Virus record (IMG/VR): IMGVR_UViG_3300020057_000035
Coordinates: 1-64,000 of that record
DNA length: 64,000 nucleotides
Source of the DNA: a virus
Strand: one strand, 5' to 3'
Made by a program: the position numbers and the translations under genes. The notes under the pieces were generated by a model. It did not search any database and was not told where the DNA came from. It saw only the letters and a program-made list of their open reading frames with translations. Position 1 is the stretch's first letter; each line of letters begins with the position of its first letter. Shown here piece by piece: positions 2,149 through 20,994 of this stretch.

Positions 2149-2160
2149 GGGTCACGTCCT

Positions 2161-2816: not shown

Positions 2817-2978
2817 TCAATTCTGGAGGAAGCACTTTCGCACGATAGTGGCTTGCCAATACCCGCCCGCATCATAGGAAGGGGATTTTACCCATTCTAC
2901 TTCGAATTGTGCGGCGCAATCGTCGCAAAGCAGGGTAGGGGTCAGGGTGTTACATTCAAGGCAGAATCCGAATTCCAT
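2817..2978 (-). CDS. Zn-finger micro-protein family A, variant 1 (MEFGFCLECNTLTPTLLCDDC...)
   Basis: CxxC..CxxC; ATG at 2978 after repeat. Confidence 0.7.
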   Translation of the reverse strand: MEFGFCLECNTLTPTLLCDDCAAQFEVEWVKSPSYDAGGYWQATIVRKCFLQN

Positions 2979-3043
2979 TGCGTTTCTCACTTCCTGATGT
3001 AATCTTAGCACGTCGGGGGATTTGTGTCAACTCCCGCTCAATT

Positions 3044-3390
3044 CTAGGATGTGCTTGCCGGGCACATATATTCGTGATAATCTTGTCCACAATCGGGGCA
3101 CGATTCGTCGAATTGTGCGGCGCAATCGTCGCAAAGCAGGGTAGGGGTCAGGGTGTTACATTCAAGGCAGAATCCGAATTCCATTGCGTTTCTCACTTCC
3201 TGATGTAATCTTAGCACGTCGGGGGATTTGTGTCAACTCCCGCTCAATTCTAGGATGTGCTTGCCGGGCACATATATTCGTGATAATCTTGTCCACAATC
3301 GGGGCACGATTCGTCGAATTGTGCGGCGCAATCGTCGCAAAGCAGGGTAGGGGTCAGGGTGTTACATTCAAGGCAGAATCCGAATTCCAT
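3044..3390 (-). CDS. Family A variant 2, two identical tandem cassettes (3044-3184 and 3250-3390; 46 aa)
   Basis: Exact 206-bp tandem duplication; same 25-aa N-terminus as variant 1, different C-terminus. Confidence 0.7.
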
Positions 3391-3485
3391 TGCGTTTCTC
3401 ACTTCCTGATGTAATCTTAGCACGTCGGGGGATTTGTGTCAAGGGGAGTCGTCGAACATCCCCTCAGCACACTATGTGATTTGTG

Positions 3486-3683
3486 TCAACGAGACATCGC
3501 GAATTCGTGTTGCCGATCTCGCAATTCGTCAAGGTTGTCATTCTCTTCACACTGCTCACAATTGTCGCACTGCTCACAATCGCCGCAGAACTGACAATCG
3601 TGGTAATGTCCGCCTTGGGCTTCCCAGTCCTCTTCAGCGCGGAGTCGGTTGCCTTCGTCGCGGTCATCTTCGTTGTAGCTCAT
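3486..3683 (-). CDS. Acidic Cys-rich micro-protein (CxxC repeats); paralog of 11432-11665
   Basis: MSYNEDDRDEG...CQFCGDCEQCDNCEQC. Confidence 0.7.
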   Translation of the reverse strand: MSYNEDDRDEGNRLRAEEDWEAQGGHYHDCQFCGDCEQCDNCEQCEENDNLDELRDRQHEFAMSR

Positions 3684-3773
3684 GTGGTTCTCCTTCACTT
3701 CCTGATGTAATCTTAGCACGTCGGGGGATTTGTGTCAACTCGATGATTTGCCTACCACACTTTGGGATTTGTG

Positions 3774-4103
3774 TCAAGCGCCACTCTCGCTTGACCAATA
3801 TATAGCACGGGAGTCGATTTGTGTCAACTCCCGCTTTAGTGCCGACGCTATTTCGTACCAGTCTACCACGCGAAGCGCGCTTAGTAGTAGATCCGAATAG
3901 ATCCCACTAGAAAGGTGTGGCATACTTTCATAATGGTGTTGTTCTAGCCTGGAGGTCAGATCGTATACGCTATCGCACATTCGCGCAGTCTCTGACCAAT
4001 ACTCCTGGCTACCCCGGTCGTTGTCGATCCATAGTTTCGCCGCCCAAGTTTCGTAGTTTGTCCACCCATTGTACTTGTTGGCATTCGGGGATTCGGGGGT
4101 CAT
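3774..4103 (-). CDS. YNGWxNYETW-family phage protein; paralog of 27717-28001
   Basis: Near-identical paralog in the window; ATG at 4103. Confidence 0.75.
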   Translation of the reverse strand: MTPESPNANKYNGWTNYETWAAKLWIDNDRGSQEYWSETARMCDSVYDLTSRLEQHHYESMPHLSSGIYSDLLLSALRVVDWYEIASALKRELTQIDSRAIYWSSESGA

Positions 4104-4156
4104 TTGGGTCACGTCCTTCACTTGCTGATGTAATCTTAGCACGTCGGGGGATTTGT

Positions 4157-4234
4157 GTCAAGCGGCGGGCTGGCAATCGTTGCAGCCTGTGTCCTTGAAT
4201 AAACCGTAATAGAACAGCACCGCTTGACTTCTAC
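4157..4234 (-). ncRNA. Candidate small structured RNA family 1 (copies 4157-4234, 4652-4729, 5555-5632)
   Basis: Own promoter, no RBS or ORF; terminal stem GTCAAGCGG/CCGCTTGAC and internal hairpin GGCTG-CAACGATTG-CCAGCC. Confidence 0.6.
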
Positions 4235-4259
4235 AATGTAGCACGTCGGGGGATTTGTG

Positions 4260-4460
4260 TCAACTACCCTTGTGGTCGATGTCCCATGTTTTCGCAGCAT
4301 CCCGCAAATCCCGTGTGGTAAGCAATCCAGCCGCTACCATTTCCAATGCCGCAGCCATCGCCCAATGTCGAGCATCATCAGGATTATCCCGATTATCGAA
4401 TGCCAGATTTACGTTTCGCATCGTATGCGTGTGCTCGATAGGACGGTTAAGAACAAGCAT
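4260..4460 (-). CDS. Cassette micro-protein MLVLNRPIEH...; same protein at 12853-13053
   Basis: Duplicated cassette. Confidence 0.75.
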   Translation of the reverse strand: MLVLNRPIEHTHTMRNVNLAFDNRDNPDDARHWAMAAALEMVAAGLLTTRDLRDAAKTWDIDHKGS

Positions 4461-4780
4461 TTTGTTTCCCTCAATTCCTTCTGATGCTATCATAGCATCG
4501 GGGGCGATTTGTGTCAACTACCCTACCCTTGTCCAAGACCAGGGCATGGGTCACGTCCTTCACTTGCTGATGTAATCTTAGCACGTCGGGGGATTTGTGA
4601 AAATTGCTTTTCTCACTTCCTGATGTAATCTTAGCACGTCGGGGGATTTGTGTCAAGCGGCGGGCTGGCAATCGTTGCAGCCTGTGTCCTTGAATAAACC
4701 GTAATAGAACAGCACCGCTTGACTTCTACAATGTAGCACGTCGGGGGATTTGTGTCAAGCGCCGCTCTCGCTTGACATTA

Positions 4781-4966
4781 TTAGATACGAATCAATGCAT
4801 CCTGAGCGTAGTCCACGGCTTCATCAGACGTGGTAAACGTGCGGCTGAAGTAAAGATCCTCTCCCTTGAACGTGTCGGCCTGATAGATTCCATCAGGCCG
4901 TAGGTGAACGTTGACCGAGTAACCAGCGTCGTATTCGATAGTCATGTTCGTGAGTGTTCGTTTCAT
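4781..4966 (-). CDS. Cassette micro-protein MKRTLTNMTIEY...
   Basis: ATG after repeat; N-terminus reused at 20827-20994. Confidence 0.7.
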   Translation of the reverse strand: MKRTLTNMTIEYDAGYSVNVHLRPDGIYQADTFKGEDLYFSRTFTTSDEAVDYAQDALIRI

Positions 4967-5039
4967 GTCTTTCACTTCCTGATGTAATCTTAGCACGTCG
5001 GGGGATTTGTGTCAAGCGCCGCTCTCGCTTGACATAATG

Positions 5040-5222
5040 CTACCCGTGAAGAAGCGAATACTTTCGCAATCTTTCGCGAGATTCTTCCAATCGCTCGGAG
5101 GCGAGTTTCGCGCGAAATTCCGCAGCAAACAAGTCACGGCGAGCATCTTCGTCACGCTCTTCGTGAATTTTAATCTCTGCGCGTAGTTCACGCTCGCCAT
5201 TTTGTTCTGATACCGATTGCAT
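5040..5222 (-). CDS. Charged helical micro-protein family B (MQSVSEQ...); variants at 6014-6241 and 20827-20994
   Basis: GGGGAG RBS; paralogs in the window. Confidence 0.7.
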   Translation of the reverse strand: MQSVSEQNGERELRAEIKIHEERDEDARRDLFAAEFRAKLASERLEESRERLRKYSLLHG

Positions 5223-5314
5223 TTCTTGTCTCCCTCTCACTTCCTGATGTAATCTTAGCACGTCGGGGGATTTGTGTCAAATCATCGATTTGACTACCAC
5301 ACTTTGGGATTTGG

Positions 5315-5455
5315 GTCAAGGAAGGTCTGACTTCTATTTATACCAGACTGTACCGGCGTCGTCCCGCCACTCATTCCCTAACCCCAACGCTACTAAGCGG
5401 ATCGGGACTGTGTTAGTTCTGTGGCGATGTCCGTTGTAGCTTCCTTAACTTCTAC
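5315..5455 (-). ncRNA. Candidate structured RNA family 2 (also 20181-20260, 20297-20418, 21039-21101)
   Basis: Closing stem differs but pairs in every copy; shared GCTA...TAC(A/T)(G/A)TCTGG-loop-(T/C)CAGA(C/T)C core. Confidence 0.65.
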
Positions 5456-5685
5456 AATATAGCACGTCGGGGAATTTGTGTCAACTCCCGTTCTGTGCTG
5501 CCAAAATTGCTTTTCTCACTTCCTGATGTAATCTTAGCACGTCGGGGGATTTGTGTCAAGCGGCGGGCTGGCAATCGTTGCAGCCTGTGTCCTTGAATAA
5601 ACCGTAATAGAACAGCGCCGCTTGACTTCTACAATGTAGCACGTCGGGGGATTTGTGTCAAGCGCCGCTCTCGCTTGACATAATG

Positions 5686-5940
5686 TTAGATTAGGCTCAA
5701 GGCCACGAGCCACGATGGTTGATCATGCGAACACGTTCCATCGGGTTCGATGCCACTACAGCCGTCTATGGCGCGTGCCACGCCGTCCATCATCCACCTT
5801 TCTAGGGTAGCATAGGTCGGCTGTTTTCCCTTCACGTTGGCGATTATGGCATCAGGGTAAGACGCCTGATATCTTTCAAGCGTAACGCCATCCCTGAGAG
5901 TCTTAAGACCGCGAGCTTCGCTGTAAACCTGGAGTGCCAT
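5686..5940 (-). CDS. Phage hypothetical protein (…DGVARAIDGC…EPDGTCSH…PSWL)
   Basis: ATG 5940 after repeat. Confidence 0.75.
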   Translation of the reverse strand: MALQVYSEARGLKTLRDGVTLERYQASYPDAIIANVKGKQPTYATLERWMMDGVARAIDGCSGIEPDGTCSHDQPSWLVALSLI

Positions 5941-6013
5941 GTCTTTCACTTCCTGATGTAATCTTAGCACGTCGGGGGATTTGTGTCAAGCGCCGCTCTC
6001 GCTTGACATAATG

Positions 6014-6241
6014 CTACCCGTGAAGAAGCGAATACTTTCGCAATCTTTCGCGAGATTCTTCCAATCGCTCGGAGGCGAGTTTCGCGCGAAATTCCGCAGC
6101 AAACAAGTCACGGCGAGCATCTTCGTCACGCCTAACCTGCTTTGCGACGATTGCGTCGCACAATTCGACGAATCGCTCTTCATGAATTTTAATCTCTGCG
6201 CGTAGTTCACGCTCGCCATTTTGTTCTGATACCGATTGCAT
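6014..6241 (-). CDS. Family B variant with 15-aa in-frame insertion
   Basis: Identical to 5040-5222 apart from a 45-nt insert. Confidence 0.7.
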   Translation of the reverse strand: MQSVSEQNGERELRAEIKIHEERFVELCDAIVAKQVRRDEDARRDLFAAEFRAKLASERLEESRERLRKYSLLHG

Positions 6242-6336
6242 TTCTTGTCACTTCCTGATGTAATCTTAGCACGTCGGGGGATTTGTGTCAACTCGATGAT
6301 TTGACTACCACACTTTGGGATTTGTGTCAAGTTCAG

Positions 6337-6404
6337 TGTTTCACGTGAAACATTCGCCCGCGTCTAGCACACTTTGGGATTTGTGTCAAGTCGAACATTT
6401 GTTC
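6337..6404. promoter_or_regulatory. parS: parS (6337-6352) and LexA box (6393-6404)
   Basis: TGTTTCACGTGAAACA; CGAACATTTGTTCT. Confidence 0.8.
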
Positions 6405-6598
6405 TAAACGTTATGTCAAGTCGGGATTACTGTCAACTTCTCGCGCGCGCGTGAGTATATATGCGTATATAAAAATCATGGGAAAATTCATACGAATTTT
6501 GGCGCGGACGCTGGCGCGAGTAAAAAAAATACCCCGCGCGGCGGACCACGAAGGGTAAAATTTAAGTGTGCTTTATTTTTAAGTTTGAACACTTTATG

Positions 6599-6934
6599 CT
6601 AGTAGGCTAGACCAGCTTTGGTCAACACACTAGCATATCTGTTCAATACGTTACCAGCATAGAGAAGTTGATCGATTGTCATCTCACCACGTACCAAATA
6701 ATCGGAGTATTCCGCGTCAGGCCATGAATTCGTATCCACACCACCACACACGGGCGAGTGCATGTACTGCCATGCAGCCGGTAGATTCTCACCGTCGGGA
6801 TAGAGTACGTCGTGATAGATTACGTCGGCAATGGCGAACATGTGTGACATTGTAGTACCCCATGGATCATTGTCACCGTATTCCATTCGTACCATTGACA
6901 TTGCTTCTTTTTTCTCTGTGACTGTCAATACCAT
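6599..6934 (-). CDS. Hypothetical protein
   Basis: 111-aa ORF with AAGGA RBS downstream of a promoter. Confidence 0.75.
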   Translation of the reverse strand: MVLTVTEKKEAMSMVRMEYGDNDPWGTTMSHMFAIADVIYHDVLYPDGENLPAAWQYMHSPVCGGVDTNSWPDAEYSDYLVRGEMTIDQLLYAGNVLNRYASVLTKAGLAY

Positions 6935-7191
6935 TTTGTGTTCCTTGGTTTTTCTTGGATGTGCTTAGTATAGCATCGTTCGACATTTGAGTCAAGCAAA
7001 GGGGTATGTTATGTCTCTTCTTTGCCTTTTCTGCGTTGTTTTCTTGAGTGAAGCAAATAGCTAGCTACTACGGTAGCGTTTTTGATTGTTATACGCTTAA
7101 AGAATCGAATCCTACTGTGCCTGGGGGCATGTTTAGAGTGCTTAAAAATATGCTTAGAATCGAATCCTACAGTGTCTGAATGATCTGGATG

Positions 7192-7272
7192 TTTCAAAAT
7201 TCAAATTTTAAATTCTAAAACGCAAATTCAATTTCTCAAATCTGAATTCTAAAATTTGAAATTTGAATCTCT
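7192..7272. repeat. AAAT-rich tract (copy 2)
   Basis: Close homolog of 1143-1225. Confidence 0.8.
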
Positions 7273-7292
7273 AAATAGCAGACTAGCGATCC

Positions 7293-7760
7293 CTAAGGAC
7301 TCGCCCAGAATCGTCTACGTCGCCAGTCGCAATCTTTGCGGTGTTCATCGGAATGGAAAGTCGGTTCGTTTGTTTCCTTGCCACAATACATACAAGTTAC
7401 CCTGTTTTTTCCTTCACTTCCTGATGTTAATCTTAGCACGAGAGTCATCAATGAAAGGGTGGATGGTTTCGAATTCACGATACCATTCTGGGATTTTACC
7501 CATTCTACTTTGAATCTGGCGGCGCAATCGTCGCAAAGCAGGTTAGGAGTCAGGGTGTTACATTCAATGCAGAATCCGAATTCCATTGCTCTTCCTGATG
7601 TTAATCTTAGCACGAGAGTCATCAATGAAAGGGTGGATGGTTTCGAATTCACGATACCATTCTGGGATTTTACCCATTCTACTTTGAATCTGGCGGCGCA
7701 ATCGTCGCAAAGCAGGTTAGGAGTCAGGGTGTTACATTCAAGGCAGAATCCGAATTCCAT
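7293..7760 (-). CDS. Family A variant 3: internally duplicated chimera carrying a Fic-gene fragment and eroded promoters
   Basis: 174-bp tandem duplication; 44 nt copied from 7900-7943. Confidence 0.5.
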   Translation of the reverse strand: MEFGFCLECNTLTPNLLCDDCAARFKVEWVKSQNGIVNSKPSTLSLMTLVLRLTSGRAMEFGFCIECNTLTPNLLCDDCAARFKVEWVKSQNGIVNSKPSTLSLMTLVLRLTSGSEGKNRVTCMYCGKETNEPTFHSDEHRKDCDWRRRRFWASP

Positions 7761-7813
7761 TGCGTTTCTCACTTCCTGATGTAATCTTAGCACGAGAGTC
7801 GATTTGTGTCAAC

Positions 7814-8242
7814 CTATCCCCAAAGTTGCGGAGGAGTGACGGGATGATCAACATTGCCCGCTAGGATATTCCAAACTATGGAACCCGTACGTCCGTTGCC
7901 ATCAATGAAAGGGTGGATGGTTTCGAATTCACGATACCATTCTAGGGCGTCTACGTTGGCGTTGGCGAGACTTTCCATGGCGCGCGGGATATTGCTAGGA
8001 TCAACTCCCTTGTCCCCACTGGCGAACATTCTGGTAACTTTGGCATACTCCGCTGAAGACGGTTTGCCTAACACCAAACCAGCAATAAACTTGATAGTCT
8101 CGGTGTGAGTCACGGAAGGAAAACTCTTTGCATGATCCCATGCACGCAACATGTAAGGAACGAACTCTGGTCCATCCCCCTGTCGCTTAACTTCTTCTGA
8201 TGCCCAGATAACTTCGTGCAGGGTGAACATTTGTTCTCTCAT
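7814..8242 (-). CDS. Fic/Doc domain protein
   Basis: HPFIDGNGR Fic motif. Confidence 0.9.
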   Translation of the reverse strand: MREQMFTLHEVIWASEEVKRQGDGPEFVPYMLRAWDHAKSFPSVTHTETIKFIAGLVLGKPSSAEYAKVTRMFASGDKGVDPSNIPRAMESLANANVDALEWYREFETIHPFIDGNGRTGSIVWNILAGNVDHPVTPPQLWG

Positions 8243-8279
8243 TTCTGTAACTTAAGTATGGCATACTTAAGTATTTGTG

Positions 8280-8606
8280 TCAAGCGCCACACATTCCCTT
8301 CGTTGTTTCCATGTATTCTTTCACCGCTTCTTGCATTGCATCGTTTTTCATGTTCTTGGAATTCTCCAGAGTAATCTTCCCCCAGCATAAACTTGTCAGC
8401 ATTTTGGCAACTTCTTTTGCCGCCCATACCGTGGCATATCTTCCCGGGAGTTTTAAGCCAGTTACTTCGTGAGTGATTATCCACTTGCCGGATTCCTTTC
8501 CGGTAGTGTATTCTCGGTGAATAAAGAATTGATTAATCCTGTATCCACTGACTTTTACTTGGGCGGTTCCGTTGCTAGTTCCTGTAAGAATCTTTGCGGT
8601 TTGCAT
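8280..8606 (-). CDS. Hypothetical protein (MQTAKILTG...)
   Basis: GAGGA RBS; N-terminus shared with 8608-8811. Confidence 0.65.
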   Translation of the reverse strand: MQTAKILTGTSNGTAQVKVSGYRINQFFIHREYTTGKESGKWIITHEVTGLKLPGRYATVWAAKEVAKMLTSLCWGKITLENSKNMKNDAMQEAVKEYMETTKGMCGA

Positions 8607-8812
8607 CTTAGAAATTCCTCTGGATATGCGTATCTATCAATCTTCCAGCTCCAACTGATGTGGCTGACTCATCTTCCCATCCACAAGTATCGCAACGTAC
8701 CAAGAAGGAGCGCCTCGACCACCGGACAGGACTACCGGCCTCGTGGATTTTGTTCTTACCCTTTCGGGCGGTTCCGTTGCTAGTTCCTGTGAGAATCTTT
8801 GCGGTTTGCATC

Positions 8813-9067
8813 TTATTTTGCATCAAGGAATTCTCGAATTGCCTTGTAGGTGTGAGGAATGCTAAAGTACTTGCAAGCATTCTTTACAGCTTTTCCGTCC
8901 TTATTGGCCGTTCCATTATCAAGGGAAAGCGTCATGCTGCGTGCGAGCGATGCTGGCGTAGTGATAGTGGCTGGATACATGTATTCGGGATCTTCTCGAA
9001 AGAGGCGAGTGTACTCTTCTTTCAAGTATTCGTAGAATGAATCTAGGTTTATTTGTGTGGCTTCCAT
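8813..9067 (-). CDS. Hypothetical protein (MEATQINL...)
   Basis: Hairpin+GGAG module upstream. Confidence 0.7.
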   Translation of the reverse strand: MEATQINLDSFYEYLKEEYTRLFREDPEYMYPATITTPASLARSMTLSLDNGTANKDGKAVKNACKYFSIPHTYKAIREFLDAK

Positions 9068-9123
9068 TAGTTTTCTCCGCATCGCCCCGCGTGTCCGGGG
9101 TCGATAGATGAACCCTACCAGCA

Positions 9124-9387
9124 TTATGATGCTACAGCCTCAAAATTCATTTCATTAGCGCAATATGTCACCATATTTTGTGATGTATACTCGCCTAAAT
9201 ATGGATCATGAGCTGTTATTGCGATGGTAAGATCCCATGATTTAAGAATGCGATTCCATCGGCGATTGCGTTCAATAAATCGTGCGCCATGTTCAAATTT
9301 TACGGGCGATCCATATTTTGGCCAAAGGATAATGGTATTTATGGGCGTAAGAATCGGATATACAGTATGGACATCGTAGGCGTTCAT
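9124..9387 (-). CDS. Hypothetical protein
   Basis: ORF track; RBS module upstream. Confidence 0.65.
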   Translation of the reverse strand: MNAYDVHTVYPILTPINTIILWPKYGSPVKFEHGARFIERNRRWNRILKSWDLTIAITAHDPYLGEYTSQNMVTYCANEMNFEAVAS

Positions 9388-9484
9388 TTGACTTTCTCCG
9401 CATCGCCCCGCGTGCTCCGGGGTCGATGTGATGACTCTAATTGATGTGGTCGACTCATCTTCCCATCACGCTATTTGATGGACT

Positions 9485-9730
9485 TTAATATCCCGGCTCA
9501 TCTGAAAGAATCCATAAAATAGCCTTATGGGGATCTTCTAGTTTCCAAGAGATAATAGGCATAAGGGATTGAATACCAATTCCCCTACGCGGAAGCCAAT
9601 GCCCAACAGAGCGTTCCTGAATAGCTCCTATCTCTTTTCCTTCACGCATTAAAGTAATGTTCTGATGGCCGTTTACATACGTTGTTTCATATGTAATTCC
9701 AGTAGTTATAACATCCCCTGTTGGCATCAT
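9485..9730 (-). CDS. Hypothetical protein
   Basis: ORF track; RBS module upstream. Confidence 0.65.
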   Translation of the reverse strand: MMPTGDVITTGITYETTYVNGHQNITLMREGKEIGAIQERSVGHWLPRRGIGIQSLMPIISWKLEDPHKAILWILSDEPGY

Positions 9731-9822
9731 CCCGTTTTCTCCGCATCGCCCCGCGTGTCCGTGGTCGATCGGACGGTTCCGTGCGTATCTATCATCTCTT
9801 ACCTCGCTGTAGCTATCTTAGC

Positions 9823-10053
9823 CTAGAACTCGATTTGTGTCAAGGTTACATCGAAGTCTCGATCATTTGTAAGCGCCACCCATCGCTCTTTGCCTTGAAT
9901 ATCGTTATTCGGTCGAATAAAGATCCAAGGGCCACTCTTTGGGGAAAAGCTAACGGACTCCCTTTGATCAAGGATAATCCAAGAAACAGGACTATCGGCC
10001 TCGTGGATTTTGTTCTTACCCTTTCGGGTTTTGCCATTGAGTAAAATTCGCAT
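9823..10053 (-). CDS. Hypothetical protein
   Basis: GAGGT RBS after promoter. Confidence 0.65.
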   Translation of the reverse strand: MRILLNGKTRKGKNKIHEADSPVSWIILDQRESVSFSPKSGPWIFIRPNNDIQGKERWVALTNDRDFDVTLTQIEF

Positions 10054-10319
10054 TTCTTACCTCGCTGTAGCTATCTTAGCGTGTTTGACTATTTGCGTCA
10101 AGCATTCTTTTAGTCTTTACACGCATTTTGTCACAATCGCAGATATCTGTTCGCTGTCGAACATTGTCAGCTTGATTCACAAGAATTTGCTGAGCGATGA
10201 ATACGTTGGGATCTCTCGTTCCAATGATTCGCATTTTTTGTCTCCCTCAACCTTGTGACTTAAGTATGCCATACTTAAGTATTTGCGTCAAGAGGGTAGG
10301 GCGTCGGCGACGCGGCGCA

Positions 10320-10610
10320 TTACTTCACTCTGATAGTCACGAAGTAATGATGGTCACAATCATCATCTTCTGCACATTCACAAAGAAATACGTATTTCTT
10401 TGAGTATGCAGAAATATCGATCGTACTGGTATCGTAGCCTTGACATGCAAGCTGCTCACAGGCATCCTCTGCCGCTTCATGCTTACTCTGCCCAATACCT
10501 GTGGCAATGTCGTCAAAGTCCGTATAAGTCAGGCCAGCGCCGTGCCAGTATTGGCTGCTATCCCAGCATATTTCGATGTCGTACTCTGTAATTTCCATCG
10601 CGGGGGTCAT
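10320..10610 (-). CDS. Acidic hypothetical protein; paralog of 19297-19587
   Basis: Paralogous pair. Confidence 0.75.
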   Translation of the reverse strand: MTPAMEITEYDIEICWDSSQYWHGAGLTYTDFDDIATGIGQSKHEAAEDACEQLACQGYDTSTIDISAYSKKYVFLCECAEDDDCDHHYFVTIRVK

Positions 10611-11042
10611 GGGTCACGTCCTTCACTTGTCTGATGCTATCATAGCATCAGACAGGATTTGTGTCAAGCGAACATGAGCGCTATCTCCCGTGCATTCTCC
10701 ACCCTGATACACGTCCCGCATACCAGCGATTGATCCGGCGACCAGTTCGCACCATTCGCCCGAATTGTTCGCCCGCATATCGCGCGATACGTAGGCGCAT
10801 CGTATCGATCGTCGTCATCTACCAGGTGTGTTGCACGCTCGCCATATAGGGATTGTGAAACGGGAACTAAATTCGTTATCATTGTTTGGGGTTCTCCTTC
10901 ACTTCCTGATGTAATCTTAGCACGTCGGGGGATTTGTGTCAAATCGATGATTTGCCTACCACACTTTGGGATTTGTGTCAAATCGATCCCTTCACTTCCT
11001 TTGTGATGCTATCATAGCACGCTGATGCGAATCTTTGGAATG

Positions 11043-11432
11043 TTATCGCGTAGCAATTTCCGTAACTCCTGCATCACAAAGATCATAAACAATCTGTTGA
11101 ACTGTATCACTATCTACAAATCCCGCCACACTGACACAACTGTGTTCATAATGCGGTTCAAATTTACTTACCCACTCAAAAGGCAAATCATGTGGACATA
11201 TTTTCGAGATTCCAACGTCGTCGGTGGGGGTTCTCCATATTGCTACTTCAAACTTAGTGTACGATTCTAGCGATAACCCTGTCACTTTTGGTTCGCAATA
11301 ATGATATTCACTAGCCTGAACACTTACCGTATGATTACCAGCACGAAAATTATTGAATCCCAACACATGAAAATTATTGAATCCCAAACTTTCTATCCGT
11401 GGCGTCATATGATCCCGAAATCCAATTGCCAT
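11043..11432 (-). CDS. Phage hypothetical protein (SVQASEYHYCEP motif)
   Basis: 129-aa ORF coupled to the upstream gene. Confidence 0.75.
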   Translation of the reverse strand: MAIGFRDHMTPRIESLGFNNFHVLGFNNFRAGNHTVSVQASEYHYCEPKVTGLSLESYTKFEVAIWRTPTDDVGISKICPHDLPFEWVSKFEPHYEHSCVSVAGFVDSDTVQQIVYDLCDAGVTEIATR

Positions 11433-11665
11433 TATATCCCCCTCGATGCTGCATATTCACGCTTTTGATCATTAAACATATTTTGCCATTCACCTTCCGC
11501 GCACTCTTCGCAATTGCCGCAGTTTTCACATTTACAGCAATTGCAATTGTTACAATCTGATTGACAGTATTCAGTGTGTTGCATGTGATAATGTCCGCCC
11601 ATATTTTCCCACGCCTCTTCGGCGTTTAGTCTTTTTCCTTCTTCGCGGTCATCGTCGTAGCTCAT
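11432..11665 (-). CDS. Cys-rich acidic micro-protein
   Basis: Paralog of 3486-3683. Confidence 0.7.
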   Translation of the reverse strand: MSYDDDREEGKRLNAEEAWENMGGHYHMQHTEYCQSDCNNCNCCKCENCGNCEECAEGEWQNMFNDQKREYAASRGI

Positions 11666-12242: not shown

Positions 12243-12476
12243 TTATGCGCGCCAGGACCGATACTCACACTTGTCACACTCTGGAATGACCCCGTACCCA
12301 CTGCCGTAATTGTAATCCGTGATTAGGACGCCGCATCGCCCGCAGGCGCAGCCGAGCGCTGCCGAGCGGAGCGCCGCGCTTAGGCGATCTTCGTATGATT
12401 CTCGGCTCTCGAACCGAGCTTCAAGTGAGCGCCGTACCTTCGACGGGTCGAATATGCGGGAAGCGATCGTAAGCAT
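12243..12476 (-). CDS. Zn-ribbon micro-protein (CGRC...CDKC)
   Basis: GGAG RBS before ATG 12476. Confidence 0.6.
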   Translation of the reverse strand: MLTIASRIFDPSKVRRSLEARFESRESYEDRLSAALRSAALGCACGRCGVLITDYNYGSGYGVIPECDKCEYRSWRA

Positions 12477-12597
12477 GGTGGGTGTCTCCCTTACCAGTGT
12501 CGGCGTTTCCCGACCACCTGATGTACTAAGTATAGAGTACGTTCCTTCACTTGCTGATGCAATCATATCACGCCGGAGGATTTGGGTCAAGTGATGC

Positions 12598-12807
12598 TTA
12601 TGATACCGTCCAATTGCCAGTAGCAAGTAGCATTTTAGCCTCGGCCTTCGTGCGTGCCGTGTAGCGATATCCAGCAGCATAGCCTATCTCGTCCTGCTGA
12701 ATGGTGAGTACGTCATAACTCTCACCATTAAGATCGCGAAACTCTATCGTTACGGGTCCAGCTTCACGAACGATATGGGTTCGAGTGACGATGAGAGGGT
12801 AGGGCAT
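12598..12807 (-). CDS. Cassette micro-protein
   Basis: ATG after repeat. Confidence 0.7.
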   Translation of the reverse strand: MPYPLIVTRTHIVREAGPVTIEFRDLNGESYDVLTIQQDEIGYAAGYRYTARTKAEAKMLLATGNWTVS

Positions 12808-12852
12808 TTCTTTCACTTCCTGATGTAATCTTAGCACGTCGGGGGATTTGTG

Positions 12853-13053
12853 TCAACTGCCCTTGTGGTCGATGTCCCATGTTTTCGCAGCATCCCGCAA
12901 ATCCCGTGTGGTAAGCAATCCAGCCGCTACCATTTCCAATGCCGCAGCCATCGCCCAATGTCGAGCATCATCAGGATTATCCCGATTATCGAATGCCAGA
13001 TTTACGTTTCGCATCGTATGCGTGTGCTCGATAGGACGGTTAAGAACAAGCAT
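12853..13053 (-). CDS. Duplicate of cassette 4260-4460
   Basis: Identical protein. Confidence 0.75.
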   Translation of the reverse strand: MLVLNRPIEHTHTMRNVNLAFDNRDNPDDARHWAMAAALEMVAAGLLTTRDLRDAAKTWDIDHKGS

Positions 13054-13364
13054 TTTGTTTCCCTCATTTCCTTGATGTAATCATAGCACGCTGGGCTATT
13101 TGTGTCAACTACCCTACCCTTGTCCAAGACCAGGGCATGGGTCACGTCCCGTCACTTGGTAAGACCATCGTAGCACGTCGGGAGATTTGTGTCAAGGGAA
13201 GTCGCCTTCACATCCATATATGCCAGATGTGTCCATTTCCTAGGCCGGGTAAAAATAATTCCCCGCGCAGTGCAATATCACTACTTCTGGCGACTTCCTT
13301 CACTTCCTGATGTAATCTTAGCACGGGAGTCGATTTGTGTCAACTCCCGTGCAGTGTTATTTGT

Positions 13365-13613
13365 TTACCATCGGCGATCGATGCTGGCGAAGGCGTACGC
13401 GCCTTTTTCTTCGGGATTGATCCAGAACGATAGCGGAGCATGGCCCGCGTATGTTTCGTTCCTATCGCCCGGCTGGTAAACGTGAAGCGCATAACCGTTC
13501 GTGCGAAGATAGTCGGCAGCATCGTCCACGTTCAATTCAACGCGAACCGTGCGACCTTCGCCGTTGCGAATTGCTATCGGGTACTCATAGGTGACTGGCA
13601 TGGTGTTCCTCAA
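13365..13613 (-). CDS. Cassette micro-protein
   Basis: ORF between repeats. Confidence 0.7.
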   Translation of the reverse strand: MRNTMPVTYEYPIAIRNGEGRTVRVELNVDDAADYLRTNGYALHVYQPGDRNETYAGHAPLSFWINPEEKGAYAFASIDRRW

Positions 13614-13666
13614 TTCCTTCTGATGCTATCATAGCATGGGGATCGATTTGAGTCAACCCGTCCTGC

Positions 13667-13876
13667 CTAGAATCGAGATCCTAGGCAATTGAGAGAGATC
13701 GCATCTCCAGCGATATCAATCCCGTTAGGCGGGTTAGATTCTACGTGTACCATAGCACCACAATTTTGACACTGCGCCCACGCCCACGCTGGCCAATGAT
13801 GGAATTGACCCATGCTATGCCCATGCCACGTGCAGGATTCGAGTGCAGATTTTCGGAGTGTCTTAACTGATGCCAT
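13667..13876 (-). CDS. Zn-binding micro-protein (CxxxGH...CQNC)
   Basis: ORF between repeats. Confidence 0.7.
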   Translation of the reverse strand: MASVKTLRKSALESCTWHGHSMGQFHHWPAWAWAQCQNCGAMVHVESNPPNGIDIAGDAISLNCLGSRF

Positions 13877-13917
13877 GGTGGTTTCTCACTTCCAAAGTTT
13901 AACTTCCTGATGCAATC

Positions 13918-14139
13918 TTAGCACGTCGGGGGATTTGTGTCGAGTGCCCGCCATACGATGGCCCAGACTTTGCGAGCGGCGGCGTAGGCGTCAAGGTGGG
14001 CGGCGATGGCGGCGGTGTAGGCATCGTGTCGCTCGTCGCCACCCAGCGCATCGAACGCCTCACGGGCGGCGTCTGTCAATGCGTTGAGAGCGTCGGCTGA
14101 TGCAAACACTTCGCGGTAAACGGTGGCGTAAACAGGCAT
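13918..14139 (-). CDS. Ala-rich cassette micro-protein
   Basis: ORF between repeats. Confidence 0.65.
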   Translation of the reverse strand: MPVYATVYREVFASADALNALTDAAREAFDALGGDERHDAYTAAIAAHLDAYAAARKVWAIVWRALDTNPPTC

Positions 14140-14335
14140 GGGTCACGTCCTTCACTTGCTGATGCAATCTTAGCACGTCGGGAGATTTGTGTCAAGTCGC
14201 CTTCACATCCATATATGCCAGATGTGTCCATTTCCTAGGCCGGGTAAAAATAATTCCCCGCGCAGTGCAATATCACTACTTCTGGCGACTTCCTTCGACT
14301 TCCTGATGTAATCTTAGCACGGGAGTCGATTTGTG

Positions 14336-14506
14336 TCAACGACACTTGTCCGAGGCCCATCGCGGGCCGAATTCCTTGCATTTGGTAAAGGCGATCCTTC
14401 GTGCGTGTTTTCCCCAGTGCCTTGCAATGCATGTCGTATGGATCGGATGCATATCGAAGATGGGCATAAATTCTTTACCGCAACATCGGCAGATAATTGT
14501 TTCCAT
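14336..14506 (-). CDS. Cys/His-rich micro-protein
   Basis: ATG 14506 after repeat. Confidence 0.65.
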   Translation of the reverse strand: METIICRCCGKEFMPIFDMHPIHTTCIARHWGKHARRIAFTKCKEFGPRWASDKCR

Positions 14507-14656
14507 GGCGTTTCTCACTTCCTGATGCAATCTTAGCACGCTGGGAGATTTGAGTCAAGTTATCGACGGTCTCGATTGTGCTTACCACATTTCTGCATTT
14601 GTGTCAAATCGAACAAATGATAAGGCTGGTGATCTGATATTTATTACGATCCCCAA

Positions 14657-14672
14657 TGTTTCACGTGAAACA
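14657..14672. promoter_or_regulatory. parS: parS palindrome
   Basis: TGTTTCACGTGAAACA. Confidence 0.85.
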
Positions 14673-14770
14673 CTTTTTCACGATTTTTTCGATTTAATTG
14701 AAAAAAAAAAACGATTTGGGGGTCGCACGCATTATATATGCGTATATTAAAAAATCACGGAAAAATCCCC

Positions 14771-15154
14771 CTAACCATGCGCATTACATTTTTCATTTTT
14801 CAAATTGCTCTTTACTATAGATTCAAAAACCCAATTTCTTAGAAAAGGAAATTCAAGTCTTATCTCTTCTAAGTAATTCTTTCCTCCGCATTCAATAAAT
14901 CCTTCCGCCCACTGCTTAATTTGAAAATTAAGGTTGACTTTGCCCTGTAATGCGGAGAATAACAACCTGGGATGCTTAGTTGAAGCCCTTTCCCCATTCT
15001 CCCACTTCAAAAATGCTTTATTAGCTGAATAACCATTATTTTCTTTCTTAATTATGGGATTACTCCCGTTAGTAGGGGGAATGAAGCTTTTATCCCATAA
15101 TCTGTACCATTTTACATATATCCAGAAATCAGGATGTATTTTTTCATTTTTCAA
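14771..15154 (-). CDS. AT-rich hypothetical protein
   Basis: 127-aa ORF. Confidence 0.6.
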   Translation of the reverse strand: MKNEKIHPDFWIYVKWYRLWDKSFIPPTNGSNPIIKKENNGYSANKAFLKWENGERASTKHPRLLFSALQGKVNLNFQIKQWAEGFIECGGKNYLEEIRLEFPFLRNWVFESIVKSNLKNEKCNAHG

Positions 15155-17009
15155 ATTATTTCTACTTTAAATTAAGCCTCCTCTTTTACTGCCCTTCTAT
15201 CTCGGAACCTAAACCACCAAATAATTCTACGTGCGGTGTGCGACCCTATCATATCACCAGCATTTCTGTTGCAAATGCACGGAACGACTGGTCCTCCGTT
15301 CCCGCGCCACATGTTTGCACGTGCTTTGTGATCGCCGCGTTCGCCGCGATCTCGTCCCGGAACATTGCACGACCTACTGAGCACGCACATTGAACGGCTA
15401 TCCAGCCTCGATCAGAAGACACTAGAACTTCGAACATGACCATTCTCCTTGAAATAGAGCTGCATGGCGATCTATTCGCCATATTTCAAAATTCAAATTC
15501 TAGATTTCAATTTCTAAATATAAAATCTAGTTTCTGAAATCTTTAATGTCTAATCTATATGTGCGAGATACGGATCTCTATCTGATAGTTGTGTACCAAT
15601 ATACTCGTATGAAATTAGATTCAATTTGACCATTTCATCAATGATCCTCATTGCCCACGCTCGGGATTCTATTTTTTTGTTCACGTTGAGGTAAGCGATT
15701 GATTTGCTTAGTGCTCTGTTGATCTCTGTTCTATCTGTCATATTTACAGATTACCACTCTGTGAGATTTGTGTCAAGTCTATCTGTTTCTCTTTAACTCT
15801 TCGACTTACGTTTCGTTTATTGTACTCTGTTTTTCGTGTGTTTGCTTCTCTTGAGGTTTCGTGCTCCCATACTGGAGTACCAGTGCTGTCAATGTAGTTC
15901 GGACGTGCATATTTGATGCGGGGATCATCGTCACCATGATATTGTACGTCTTTACGTCCTAGATCAATCCATCTCTTTGGATCATAGACTTCTCGTCCTT
16001 TGCGCCCTATTAGTTCGGCCATGCTGTATTGTGTACCTCTTCCTCTATTTTGTTTTGTTCTTCTTGGTGTTCTTCTGCTTGTGCTTGTGCATCCGACCAA
16101 TCACTACTAGATCCTACGGAATCATTACAGTCATAGCAGAAAGCGACGTATCCACTATAGGGATGATCGTCACAGCATCCCCCACGGTCTGAGACACTTA
16201 CTTCGTGTTCCATTACTCTATGAACAATCCCGCAATCGCGAAAGTGAAACAAAGAGTAGCGAAGAAGAATAATTCAAACATTTACTTTTTCCTTCAACGT
16301 AATTGTGTTTTTTAATATGCCCTCAATACTGAACCCAAGTGCTCCAATCTCACAAAGATTGCTGCAATAGGTCAGCCGTAGGCTTGATGTGCTCTTAGAC
16401 GTTGTGTATATCGTCTTGCATCGCTCACAAACTTTCATCGTGTCCACCTTTGTATTGTTTCTAACTACTCACAGTGTATCATCAAAGGGCATTTGTGTCA
16501 ATAAGCATAATAATGAGTGCTCTTTCCCTAAACCTGTCAAACCTAGATATTTGGGGTACGTAACCATGCGTGAATCGCTTTGTGTGTATATTCAATTTCT
16601 ATGATATCCAGGACTTGAGGAAAGAACTGTTGAGTAGGGGAGAAACGTCCATTGCGAAGAGAAAAAGCCAATTGATCCATATTTTTGATTTCTAGCTTTT
16701 CATCACTTTCGCTTTGTATTCTTTCATACAAATCAATAAACAATTCCATCTTATCTTCATTCAGTGTACTCGAAAACCAACTAGTCATATAGTTTCTCCT
16801 GTAGTGTGGCGCACTTTTCTGCATCATCATCTGGGGCCGCCCGCGTTGGCCTTGTGACGTTGCCCGCCCAAAATGTGAGCAACGTCACGCTCGTCGGGTA
16901 TGCCGGTCGCTGGTTGTTGCGGCCCACCTTCACGAGATCAGTCATCATAGGGGCCAATCCGCTAGCAGGTCCCATGCGTTTGCCACAAGTTCGCAGGTGG
17001 CGGCGGGCA

Positions 17010-17339
17010 TCAATCTTCGTTAGGATCATCGTCGAAAAATACGTGCATCGAAACTACTCGACCCTCTCGATTCTTCTCTACATATACGGGATAAAATCCA
17101 TCACCGTAGCCTGTTTCCACTGCTACAGCATAACCGCTGTCTAGGTCACCTGAACGTTCCTTAGAATTTGATGCTTGACAAGCGCCCTCGTAGCTATATG
17201 CGTATGGCAGCTTACAATCCTCTGGCTCTAAATTAAGATTGTTTCCATGTGTAACAAACCGATCAAGATAGCAGGGATCGCCTACCATCACCTGACCAGA
17301 ATCTACCATCACTTTGCCCACAAGTTCCATTATGTCCAT
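17010..17339 (-). CDS. DUF4241-like protein
   Basis: VDSGQVMVGDPCY and TGYGDGFYPVY motifs. Confidence 0.65.
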   Translation of the reverse strand: MDIMELVGKVMVDSGQVMVGDPCYLDRFVTHGNNLNLEPEDCKLPYAYSYEGACQASNSKERSGDLDSGYAVAVETGYGDGFYPVYVEKNREGRVVSMHVFFDDDPNED

Positions 17340-17867
17340 CCTTCTTTTTTCCTCTGTGTACTTAATATACCAGACTTAGGTATTTGTGTCAACTCCCGTT
17401 CTGTACTGCCACGGGACTGCTCGCCATGCGGCATCTTCCGCCTTTGCTGTTTCATACCACGCTTCATCTTCGATGGGCATAGGGTGGGAAGATTTGCGCC
17501 TCCAACTACTCGCCATCCTTGCAGTGCTTTCTGCCTTTGCAGATTCACGCCATATGGCGTAGGCTATGTCGAAAGTATTTATTGACACTTCTTTGTTCCT
17601 CATTTCCTTGATGTAATCATAGCACGCTGGGAGATTTGTGTCAAATTATCTTTGTGCGCGCAAAGTCGATCATCCAACGAATACCAGAAAGAGTATCTGC
17701 TTTAACATAACCATAGTCTGGTACTAGGGCGGAATACATGTCTGAGTGCTCAATACGATCAACGGTTATTCCATGATAGGTGCGTAGTTTCATGTTTGTT
17801 CCTTTTCCTTGGTGCGTTTATTGTAGCAGCAGAACCTATTTGTGTCAAGTGACACGTTGTGTCAATC

Positions 17868-18251
17868 TTAGAAAGGCACATATACCCTGAATAGTGGGGG
17901 ATGCACCCGCCACATTTCCATGCGATCCGCCGCACTTAATTCATAGCCCTCTCCGGTTCCCATAATTCCTTCGCCTTCGATATGATTCAGCCAAAGGCAA
18001 TGACCGACTTCGTGTGTAATAATCTTCTGTTGAAGCTGAGCAGGATATGTTTGCCATACTGGTGGTACCCAGATTACACAACTGCCTTCAGCAACATAAG
18101 TCCATGCGGCCCAAATGCGTTCATATTCGCGAAAATCTACATTATCACTAGTAGACGAATCATGTACCTGAATATCAGGTACAGTAAACATGGAACCAAG
18201 GGCACTCCATAATGCAAGGGCAATCATCACCATTGTTTGTACTAATCCCAT
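17868..18251 (-). CDS. Secreted or membrane-anchored metzincin (matrixin-like) zinc metalloprotease
   Basis: HEVGHCLWLNH zinc motif plus downstream GIM Met-turn; hydrophobic N-terminus. Confidence 0.75.
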   Translation of the reverse strand: MGLVQTMVMIALALWSALGSMFTVPDIQVHDSSTSDNVDFREYERIWAAWTYVAEGSCVIWVPPVWQTYPAQLQQKIITHEVGHCLWLNHIEGEGIMGTGEGYELSAADRMEMWRVHPPLFRVYVPF

Positions 18252-18253
18252 AT

Positions 18254-18574
18254 CTAATCTCCGTCTCCGTAGATTGATTTGTATGCCACCGTATGCCACC
18301 GTCGAGCGGTGCTATGTGCGATCGCAACATCGTCGGAAGAAAAGTATTGGGGGAAAGTGAGAGCAACGATTGACCAATCGCAATCCTCTTCGTAGATACC
18401 TTCTTCTATACTCCACCTGGAATCAATCTCGGCGTTCCTACGCTTGCCTAGAATGTAGCCGCCGTGTGACGGAGTTTCGTACCTGATGATACCAGGGCCA
18501 TAGGTACGAGCGGTCTCCGACGTACCCCACGGGGTGCTGCGCTTGACATATCGTGCTTCTGGTTCTGTGTACAT
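18254..18574 (-). CDS. Conserved phage/MGE protein (STPWG...TPSHGG...YEEDCDW; DUF7007-like)
   Basis: Motif recognition. Confidence 0.65.
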   Translation of the reverse strand: MYTEPEARYVKRSTPWGTSETARTYGPGIIRYETPSHGGYILGKRRNAEIDSRWSIEEGIYEEDCDWSIVALTFPQYFSSDDVAIAHSTARRWHTVAYKSIYGDGD

Positions 18575-18627
18575 GTTCTTTCCTCACTTGCTTGATGATG
18601 TAATCTTAGCACTGAAAGGTATTTGTG

Positions 18628-18924
18628 TCAACCACCCATAAGGTTGGAAGCATCAGATGTATACCACCTATAGATGGCATCTAGTGCTATACGTGCTGGC
18701 CTGTCTCCACCGTGCTCAAATTCTTTTACTGTGAGATTGGCGAGTAGGTTGTATGCAAATGCGATTGCCAATTGTGGATAGAATGGTGCGGCATTCTTCG
18801 CTGCCTGTTTTGTACCATATGGACACGCCCATCCATAATCCAGAATCACATCGTACAGCGTCTCAGGGACTGCTATACACGCTTCCGCTCCGCCATAGTG
18901 TGCATGAAACAATTTGTCTTTCAT
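18628..18924 (-). CDS. Hypothetical protein
   Basis: GAGGA RBS after promoter. Confidence 0.7.
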   Translation of the reverse strand: MKDKLFHAHYGGAEACIAVPETLYDVILDYGWACPYGTKQAAKNAAPFYPQLAIAFAYNLLANLTVKEFEHGGDRPARIALDAIYRWYTSDASNLMGG

Positions 18925-19296
18925 TTTGCTTTCCTCGACTGTTCTGTGATGTAATCTTAGCCTAGATTGAGGTTTGTGTCAAGGTGCTTACACCCAAACT
19001 TAGATCCACCGTACCAATGCCCTTCCCACATAGTTCCACTAAGAATATACTGCTGGATATTGTTCCTATGTGGGGAAAAAGGATCTTGTTGTGCAATCCT
19101 AGCAAAGACATTCAATACCTTGATCTTTTCTCTGATAGTAAGCTCATGGAAAGTACGTGCCGCTACAATGTATGCCCTATTATTACCGAAGGACAACGGA
19201 ATTACGGTTGCTTTCATTTTCTTTTCCTCATTCGCTTTTTCTTGTTGATGTAATCTTAGCACGATAGGGGATTTGTGTCAAACAGGCTTCGGTAGT

Positions 19297-19587
19297 TCAC
19301 TTTACCCTGATGGTTACGAAGTAATGATGGTCACAATCATCATCTTCTGAGCACTCACACAATTGTGTGTAGTTCCCTGAGTATGCGGAAGTATCGATCG
19401 TACTGGTATCGTAACCTTGATGTGTAATCTGCTCACAAGCGTCCTCTGCCGCATCACGCTCGCTTTGACCAATACCTGTAGCAAGGTCGTCGAAGTCCAT
19501 ATAAGACTGACGCCAAAGATTGAGAGTAAAGTATTGGCTATGATCGTAGGATATCTCGATGTCGTATTGTTGAATCTTCCTCAACAT
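19297..19587 (-). CDS. Acidic hypothetical protein, paralog of 10320-10610
   Basis: Paralogy. Confidence 0.75.
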   Translation of the reverse strand: MLRKIQQYDIEISYDHSQYFTLNLWRQSYMDFDDLATGIGQSERDAAEDACEQITHQGYDTSTIDTSAYSGNYTQLCECSEDDDCDHHYFVTIRVK

Positions 19588-19668
19588 TTATTTTATCCTT
19601 TCAAGAATTTTCCATCTTTGTTTCCTCGATTGCTTGATGTACCTATAGTATCATCGCTCTTGATTTGT

Positions 19669-19965
19669 GTCAAGTAAGTAGTTCAGCGTTGCACTATCGG
19701 CGGATGTATCTTCCTCATCCCGATTAAGCCTGTGTAGTGATCGCTGAACATCCTAAGTACTACCACTACATGATAACCGTCAGTAGCCAAAGGCATAGAT
19801 CCCCTACCTCTTCAATGAGCCGATAGGGGTAACTACCTTCTATGAAGGCGCACGGTTGTTTTACCCGTGCCTCATCCTGCGCCTACAGGGCAGACTTCTG
19901 TCGTCAAAAATACAGGTACCGGGATTCTTTACGAATTAGGAACCCATACGCATTTTTGACTTCTT
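19669..19965 (-). ncRNA. Multi-hairpin non-coding cassette ending in a family 3 domain
   Basis: Promoter at ~19965-19995; stem GTCAAAAATGC/GTATTTTTGAC plus further hairpins; no ORF in the track. Confidence 0.55.
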
Positions 19966-20476
19966 AATACTAACACCCTAGAGCATTAGTGTCAAGTCTG
20001 AATAATTGTTATTTAACCATAATAACTAAGGTGTCTTTGTGTTCTTGCACTTTGCTTTAACTTTAGTGCGTCTTGATGTTTTAATTGCCCTCTTATTAAC
20101 CGCATGAGGGCTAAGCGTTGCCGTCTATTTCGTGCTGTCACTCTACTCGTTGCCCGCAAGGTAGATGCCGGTTTGATGTCGCAACGGTCTGGGCTTTGGT
20201 ACTCACCAGACTGTATTTCGATACCCGCTGTTGCAACAGATAGGGTTTGAATAGCGTTGCTTCAACTCATTAAGAATAGCACACTGGCTAATTTGTGTCA
20301 AGTGGTCTGACTCACAAACCAGACTGTACGATTATTTATCACCAATCAACCTACACACGGGTTGCGTAGGCCACTCCCACTTCGTCAGTGAACGCGGTTT
20401 CGATAGCACTTGACTTCTTAAGTATACCTTAAATAGGTATTTGTGTCAACTTCCTCATGGAATTGCCACACAGAAA

Positions 20477-20734
20477 TTAAGACGAAATTTCTCGCAGCTT
20501 TGCACCGTCCCAAATTGCCCCTTCGGCAAGAATGGCGCGCGATTCGTGAGCGCGACCGCCCCGATGGGCGGTCATAACGGACATTACCACATCTGCCAAC
20601 TCGGCGCTTGATAGCTTGTCGAAAAGTGTGGGCTTGATATCCGCTATTACTGCTGCCCATGTCGCCTGTCCGGTGTGATAACCGGCCTGCTGGACGGTAC
20701 ACAGCGCCCGGTTAATTTTGACTGAATGATTCAT
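20477..20734 (-). CDS. Hypothetical protein
   Basis: GGAG RBS. Confidence 0.7.
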   Translation of the reverse strand: MNHSVKINRALCTVQQAGYHTGQATWAAVIADIKPTLFDKLSSAELADVVMSVMTAHRGGRAHESRAILAEGAIWDGAKLREISS

Positions 20735-20826
20735 GATTCTCTCCCAAAAAAAGTTAGCTGTGATTTCATTAAGACTATCTTAGCTTAAGTTTGGATTTGT
20801 GTCAAGCGCCGCTCTCGCTTGACATG

Positions 20827-20994
20827 CTACCCGTGAAGCAGAAAATACTTTCGCAGTCTTTCGCGAGATTCTTCCAATCGCTCGGCAGCGAGTTTCGCGC
20901 GAAATTCCGCAGCAAACAAGTCACGGCGAGCATCTTCGTCACGCTCTTCGTGAATTTTCATCTCGATAGTCATGTTCGTGAGTGTTCGTTTCAT
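20827..20994 (-). CDS. Chimeric micro-protein (N-terminus of 4781-4966 + C-terminus of family B)
   Basis: Direct sequence comparison. Confidence 0.7.
   Translation of the reverse strand: MKRTLTNMTIEMKIHEERDEDARRDLFAAEFRAKLAAERLEESRERLRKYFLLHG

Follow-up and report, generated by a model that had tools for sequence, protein, structure and literature searches.

The window analysed here, 64,000 nucleotides (nt) long, is the first 64 kb of the linear, 111,848-bp IMG/VR virus record IMGVR_UViG_3300020057_000035, a single metagenome contig with an estimated completeness of ~73%. Its left 33 kb carry small minus-strand open reading frames (ORFs) and have a G+C content of 41–52%, measured per 2-kb window across the first 22 kb; phage DNA of ~30% G+C makes up the right part of the window and the remaining record. 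The left part is an early-gene array (~670–33250) of ~75 cassettes, each consisting of a promoter, a leader and a micro-ORF, and the array genes and cassettes described below all lie on the minus strand. It is hosted by the genome of an uncultured phage, apparently lytic and no smaller than 112 kb. We found that array genes share segments smaller than a gene in three ways: as blocks continuous with the promoter and leader that carry the first 5–24 codons, as common 3′ tails, and as internal patches of 30–45 nt from other array genes, two of them inverted and two in another frame. We regard the array as a clear natural case of recombination-shuffled gene fragments, and the process looks like ordinary phage recombination, with no new mechanism.

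The predicted promoters are of sigma70 type with an extended −10 (consensus TTGACACAAAT-N10-TGCTAAGAT) and are followed by a leader with a Shine-Dalgarno sequence. By consensus match, their parts are TTGACA, a 17-nt spacer and a TG-extended −10 that reads TAAGAT or TATGAT. A search for the pattern TTGACNCAAAT-N10-GCTANGAT, tolerating up to three mismatches, returned 80 matches against 0.2 expected, with 77 of the matches falling within 907–33247 of the minus strand. Similarly, positions 1–20000 contained 87 sigma70-like sites (31 expected), nearly all with the TG-extended −10. The commonest subtype (TTGACA, 17-nt spacer, TGcTAAGAT) is exemplified by the promoter at 4987–5015 with its leader at 4967–4986. 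Leaders fall into few types, each ending in a Shine-Dalgarno-like run, and the ATG is located 20–38 nt past the −10. One of them, GTGAAGGACGTGACCCATG, which an initial annotation of this DNA had described as reused by several genes, occurs in six exact copies and one near copy where none is expected. The whole expression module of a micro-gene spans 50–80 nt, and the distance from the micro-ORF stop codon to the next −35 is usually −4 to +24 nt. Intrinsic terminators between cassettes were not enriched (23 terminator-like sites in positions 1–20000, 18.9 expected). The promoter patterns had no matches in IMG/VR or species genomes and matched three short metagenome contigs.

Other features accompany the promoters. 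A 146-nt repeat present in three copies with 99% identity (4118–4263, 4613–4758 and 5516–5661) is composed of a promoter with a TACATT −10, an ORF-free and presumably transcribed 73-nt spacer beginning gtagaagtcaag, and a second promoter; the spacer could encode a small RNA or act as a regulatory site. Starts resembling gtagaagt were also observed after two other promoters (12201 and 5484), and a further two (20449 and 19995) are followed by a related start, taagaagtcaa. Upstream of several promoters lies an 8-bp hairpin (GTCAAGCG / CGCTTGAC) whose 3′ arm is the −35 box (4761–4786, 5018–5039, 5664–5685, 5992–6013 and 20808–20825). It is probably not a terminator because a T-run is absent, and could be a protein-binding or recombination site. 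In the TATGAT subtype, a perfect palindrome (GATGCTAT / ATAGCATC; 10626–10656 and 4478–4504) is made up of the −10 and the beginning of the leader; it could be an operator overlapping the promoter. Perfect palindromes containing the parS-like TGTTTCACGTGAAACA (248–267, 296–315, 14655–14672 and 22092–22109) adjoin the few minus-strand terminators that punctuate the array. The high-G+C cassettes reach 45–64% (window 1–22000) against ~30% elsewhere (34000–64000), and the highest values accompany the CCCCCGACG promoter-spacer subtype; the cassettes may be of foreign origin or may have undergone biased gene conversion.

Not all cassettes are intact. Some promoters have no gene after them, or only an ORF remnant of 2 or 9 codons. 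At 2461–2547, a gutted cassette is reduced to promoter, leader and ATG CCC TAA and abuts directly on a gene-end/stem-loop remnant, with 27 nt identical to 1953–1979. The DUF7249 gene (3774–4103, 109 aa) has lost its stop codon and runs on through a degenerate promoter, and its variants P0049 and P0050, of 92 aa, end 17 codons earlier.

The initial annotation had reported a single Zn-finger N-terminus carrying three tails (genes at 2817, 3044 and 7293). This was confirmed by nucleotide alignment: in the Zn genes with starts at 2978, 3184 and 3390, the promoter and everything from there up to nt 77 of the coding sequence (CDS) are 100% identical. In ZnA (2817–2978), these 77 nt, as in ZnB, are followed by 19 nt common to the ZnC copies (7760/7586) and then by a unique tail. 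ZnB1 (3044–3184) and ZnB2 (3250–3390), duplicated in tandem and 100% identical to each other, end in a different (CPDC) tail. The third tail is also real and of composite origin. The ZnC read-through ORF (7293–7760) comprises two tandem units running into a third small cassette, and each unit is made of the Zn 5′ part, an out-of-frame fragment of a Fic gene and a translated promoter remnant without −35. The Fic fragment (7620–7663, second copy at 7446–7489) is 44 nt long and 100% identical to 7900–7943, the source-like copy within a small Fic-domain gene (7814–8242; Pfam Fic, E 7e-8). By exact look-up in public assemblies, the ZnA protein was found on two contigs and the Zn-Fic read-through on two, with variants of the latter on further contigs; the Zn-Fic unit is present once in variant P0018 and twice in P0016, P0017 and P0019.

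A fusion of the start of one gene to the body of another is found in family B. Gene K (4781–4966), whose product begins MKRTLTNMTIE, holds the source-like copy of a 5′ block that recurs with 100% identity over 82 nt (4935–5016 and 20963–21044) and covers the promoter, the leader and 32 nt of CDS. In the chimera B3 (20827–20994), the first 32 nt of K (20963–20994) are joined in frame to a family B body (20827–20962), only ~94% identical to that of the unmodified family B gene B1 (5040–5222). The fusion proposed in the initial annotation is therefore visible in the DNA itself. Exact copies of the K and B3 proteins are encoded on four and three contigs, respectively. A further member, B2 (6014–6241), carries an in-frame 45-nt insert (6131–6175) that corresponds to the reverse complement of the Zn-gene core, with 95.6% identity to 3101–3145 and 25 nt exactly matching 7523–7547; the exact B2 protein was found on six contigs.

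Similarly, X2 (8608–8811) is a three-part mosaic of an X3 N-terminus (8766–8815), a block in common with Y (8726–8768) and a unique tail. X3 (8280–8606), a 108-aa gene with a cluster of six variants, has its first 15 codons in common with X2, and the underlying MQTAKILTGTSNGTA block (8561–8610 and 8766–8815) is 98% identical over 50 nt. The Y block (RKGKNKIHEA) is 97.7% identical over 43 nt between 8726–8768 and 9986–10028, in the same frame as in Y (9823–10053), the exact protein of which is on nine contigs. The earlier observation of one start with two tails, one of them common to Y, was thus upheld.

Shared tails and starts also occur in other genes of the array. The Cys-rich gene at 11432–11683 ends in an EWQN...YAASRGI tail (11433–11507), as previously noticed, which recurs outside the Pfam domain of DUF6197 paralogue 3 (26219–26611; tail at 26238–26312) with 88% identity over 75 nt. 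Exact copies of the paralogue 3 protein were found on four contigs, and P0029–P0033 are alleles of the Cys-rich gene tail. The MIAWHDR start common to a 203-aa gene (27122–27733) and an 83-aa gene (27991–28242), another observation that stood, lies in a 100% identical 36-nt block (27713–27748 and 28222–28257) composed of 15 nt before the ATG and seven codons. A promoter-into-CDS block is shared between 2133–2205 and 4088–4162 with 93% identity.

Two genes contain internal patches without change of their open frames. DUF6197 paralogue 1 (25384–25827) carries a 39-nt foreign block (25630–25668), present in variants P0021–P0024 and 100% identical to 25001–25039, where it is read in a different frame within the ORF 24805–25113. 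The latter has no Pfam match, and its assignment as a Panacea/DUF4065-type protein was dropped as lacking Pfam support. In the gene at 19297–19587, a paralogue of 10320–10610 whose exact protein is on eight contigs, the variable segment 19504–19533 is an inverted copy of 592–621 (30 nt).

We compared this sharing with the rest of the phage genome. After masking of promoters and leaders, comparison of the 34-kb array with itself by BLAST produced 64 repeat high-scoring segment pairs against 11, 1 and 2 in three other 34-kb pieces of the phage and none in five shuffles. Exact repeats of at least 14 nt numbered 136 in the array versus 38–73 in the controls, and nearly all of the control repeats were shorter than 20 nt. 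The shared blocks are mostly 96–100% identical, the EWQN tail being lower, whereas the bodies of true paralogues are 82–94% identical.

These values bear on the idea that the shared N-termini and tails are old functional modules, that is, domains or signals kept by selection with no recent transfer of DNA. The EWQN tail, with only 88% DNA identity and in frame in two families, would suit such an origin, and first codons may lie in the translation initiation region and be selected along with the leader. However, the 96–100% identity of most blocks includes synonymous sites and reaches into non-coding flanks, two blocks differ in reading frame between their copies and another two are in inverted orientation, and no relatives of families B and Zn were detectable beyond this phage population. 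We therefore consider it unlikely that the blocks are conserved modules of this kind.

Both parents could be read at six junctions, where microhomology amounted to 2, 3, 0, 1, 2 and 1 nt. The ‘microhomology-driven’ recombination of the initial annotation is consequently not established, these lengths being not clearly above chance. For every patch, a donor-like copy is present 0.3 to 19 kb away, with 0–3 nt of junction microhomology, and visual inspection of the patch borders showed no common motif. The reading frame was kept at the B3 join, at the B2 insert and at the Y block of X2, and DUF6197 paralogue 1 and the gene 19297–19587 stay open across their patches. Four independent frame-keeping events would have a chance of ~(1/3)^4, so selection for open frames is likely.

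The short junctions also speak to whether the chimeras are assembly artefacts, i.e. false joins made by the assembler between repeats. The record is a single metagenome contig and the array is rich in near-identical repeats of 50–200 nt, and the order or copy number of identical cassettes such as ZnB1/ZnB2 could be wrong; as assembled, these remain putative. Sub-gene junctions, in contrast, share only 0–3 nt, far under any assembler k-mer, and therefore walking a k-mer graph cannot generate the chimeras. Moreover, the exact chimeric proteins were retrieved from 2–9 other public contigs (JGI, ENA and Logan assemblies), and a metagenome contig, L009, is collinear with window 9383–11148, including Y, at 99.6% identity. 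A false-join origin of the chimeras is thus hardly credible.

The related contigs further revealed differences between variants of the phage. A short contig, L010, is 98.3% identical to the window as far as the promoter 2781–2809 and diverges exactly there; upstream of this promoter it carries a different gene and then a non-coding remnant of the tail of gene 1975–2148. This structure indicates that the mobile unit is promoter-centred and able to carry bits of flanking genes. In the population, the tail of the Cys-rich gene exists as NMFND or NTLDD alleles, NTLDD matching the tail of the DUF6197 gene, and one Cys-rich variant continues into YDW as the DUF6197 gene does. IMQT/IAAT alleles are reassorted between DUF6197 paralogues 2 and 3. 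Together with the copy-number changes, these tail swaps are evidence of ongoing exchange; in the Zn and DUF6197 cases, part of it is ordinary gene conversion among paralogues. Thus, recombination within genes and beyond cassette order, as proposed in the initial annotation, is supported by junctions located in CDS, by the higher identity of the shared blocks compared with paralogue bodies, by the same chimeras on other contigs and by variants recombining the same segments.

Another contig, L011, has extra segments relative to the window. Its positions 1927–3430, a segment of ~1.5 kb flanked by sequence equivalent to window positions 146 and 85, have no match in the record, which makes the left end of the latter either variable or incomplete. 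Over positions 1–146, the window begins within a GAGGG-rich tandem repeat.

PeSL (promoter-early stem-loop) cassettes are known from T4-type phages (Arbiol et al. 2010, PMC2839356; Comeau et al. 2014, PMC4122927). There, repeated early promoters bring about the shuffling of modules and the formation of mini-circles, strong sigma70-like early promoters and Shine-Dalgarno sequences flank small non-essential ORFans, and short homology suffices for recombination. We think that the array is probably a PeSL-like hyperplastic early region, in which promoter-repeat exchange, illegitimate joins and template-switch-like patches make chimeras that selection for open frames then filters. A simple scheme would involve the ~75 near-identical modules as portable homology for the phage recombination and replication machinery (UvsX/RecA-like, A-family polymerase, DnaB-like helicase). 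Module-module exchange would give tandem duplications, deletions leaving empty cassettes, and replacement of cassettes between co-infecting variants. An illegitimate second crossover inside a CDS would make the module take along first codons or the last codons of its neighbour, producing N- or C-terminal ‘grafts’. Since most N-terminal grafts run on from the repeated promoter/leader, it is probable that homology served one crossover and that the other alone was illegitimate. The internal patches of 30–45 nt, at least four, would most likely result from polymerase template switching or from templated fill-in during break repair. Such events could survive because the genes are dispensable, with selection against broken frames acting afterwards. 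A segment once common to two unrelated genes may then serve as new homology for gene conversion, as the population variants show.

Several points weigh against this PeSL-like scheme. Junction microhomology is weak (0–3 nt), with a mean over the six junctions of ~1.5 nt against ~0.7 nt by chance, too small a sample for the difference to count as a signal. The 45-nt inverted insert of B2 has no identical donor in the genome and is a hybrid of two Zn alleles. Repeats could be concentrated in the array because its non-essential genes tolerate them and not because events are more frequent there, and event rates, expression and function are all deduced from sequence. Most of the transfers could have run in either direction, and cassette order in relatives was compared on three short contigs. 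As for the earlier claim that recombination ‘diversifies proteins’, it is unsupported as stated: several products look like debris, namely the out-of-frame Fic fragment, the translated promoter remnants and the gutted cassettes with 2- and 9-codon ORFs.

The same debris is relevant to a programmed form of diversification, in which a dedicated system (integron-like, similar to a diversity-generating retroelement, or a new recombinase) would shuffle sub-gene segments of early proteins. The fairly narrow size of the internal patches (30–45 nt), the preservation of open frames and the confinement of events to one region would be expected of such a system. Nevertheless, no reverse transcriptase or tyrosine integrase was found in the 112-kb record (~73% complete), patch borders have no common motif by eye, and the out-of-frame and antisense use of patches, along with the frequent gutted cassettes and promoter remnants, fits untargeted events. 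A dedicated shuffling system thus seems very unlikely.

The PeSL-like scheme could also be extended. In this extension, the array would be an ‘ORFan nursery’, where the A-family polymerase of the phage, or replication that depends on recombination, raises the input of templated patches of ~30–50 nt at promoter repeats under heavy transcription, and variants of micro-proteins, for instance for host takeover or counter-defence, arise much faster than elsewhere. We hold this to be rather unlikely; if true, the raised G+C content of the array (45–55%, in a phage of ~30%) could be the footprint of intense biased gene conversion.

The phage itself has no close relative among 50,697 deposited phage records. 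Megablast of positions 2000–22000 against these records gave no match, protein-seeded IMG/VR scans found no relatives, and PHROGs contained no family for ten of the micro-proteins. In the record we identified genes for a large terminase with an intein, a ribonucleotide reductase with inteins, thymidylate synthase, RNA ligase, an A-family DNA polymerase, a UvsX/RecA-like recombinase, a DnaB-like helicase, HNH endonucleases and TnpB, in addition to eight tRNAs. Inteins with LAGLIDADG or HNH endonuclease domains occur in both the ribonucleotide reductase and the large terminase (window 47904–53852 and 54966–57473), free-standing HNH genes are located at 29517–29978 and 34332–34994, and TnpB at 62325–63473.

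The array touches on two open questions, the origin of phage ORFans and the fast change of small early (host-takeover/anti-defence) proteins. One genome and its variants display the intermediates: promoter modules carrying codons, in-frame fusions, antisense and out-of-frame reuse, and gutted cassettes. It represents a natural system of moderate interest for the making and remaking of micro-genes.

Among known systems, integron arrays resemble this one in being a long one-directional run of small, mostly unknown genes with a repeated element between them. Here, however, the repeat is a promoter and not attC, and each cassette has its own promoter in place of a single Pc. Integrons and diversity-generating retroelements were both rejected as candidates: PF00589 (tyrosine integrase) and PF00078 (reverse transcriptase) are absent from the record (~73% complete), and the patches lack adenine-specific differences.

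For the short internal patches, templated mutagenesis in T4 rII offers a precedent of template switching. The effects of template switching on protein evolution have been described in yeast (PMC8604942). As in template-switch mutation, the patches are short, would be ectopically templated, are sometimes inverted, and alter several codons at once. They differ in being longer (30–45 nt), with donor-like copies 0.3–19 kb off, and in having no evident flanking imperfect repeats.

Joins inside genes through illegitimate recombination belong to the classical view of phage mosaicism, which is reportedly captured by the ‘moron’ model of Hendrix and Juhala. Mosaicism models share with our array the near-random joins with little or no homology, the selection filter and the addition of promoter-bearing small genes between others, but the events described here are intragenomic, recent (96–100% identity), very short and clustered in one array. 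Recombination of diverged sequences is carried out by lambda Red (PMC2327257).

The closest likeness is to PeSL regions. The array has the conserved, repeated sigma70-like promoter with Shine-Dalgarno sequence, by consensus match, and the repeat-bounded insertions, deletions and replacements between close relatives, illustrated on short contigs by the L010 break at promoter 2781–2809. It differs in that the defining stem-loop terminator upstream of the promoter was not found, some copies having instead the 8-bp hairpin over the −35 without T-run, and in that the phage is not T4-like, its polymerase matching A-family / DNA polymerase I PHROGs. The density is also far higher: the 33 kb contain ~75 copies, and for many of them the identity extends beyond 50 nt. 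Finally, the PeSL papers deal with shuffling of whole cassettes, whereas intragenic crossovers and patches are observed here. Thus, the array works like PeSL but outside that family, extending the PeSL idea past T4-type phages; the principle was already known, and the density of events, their recency and the short internal patches are what is new.

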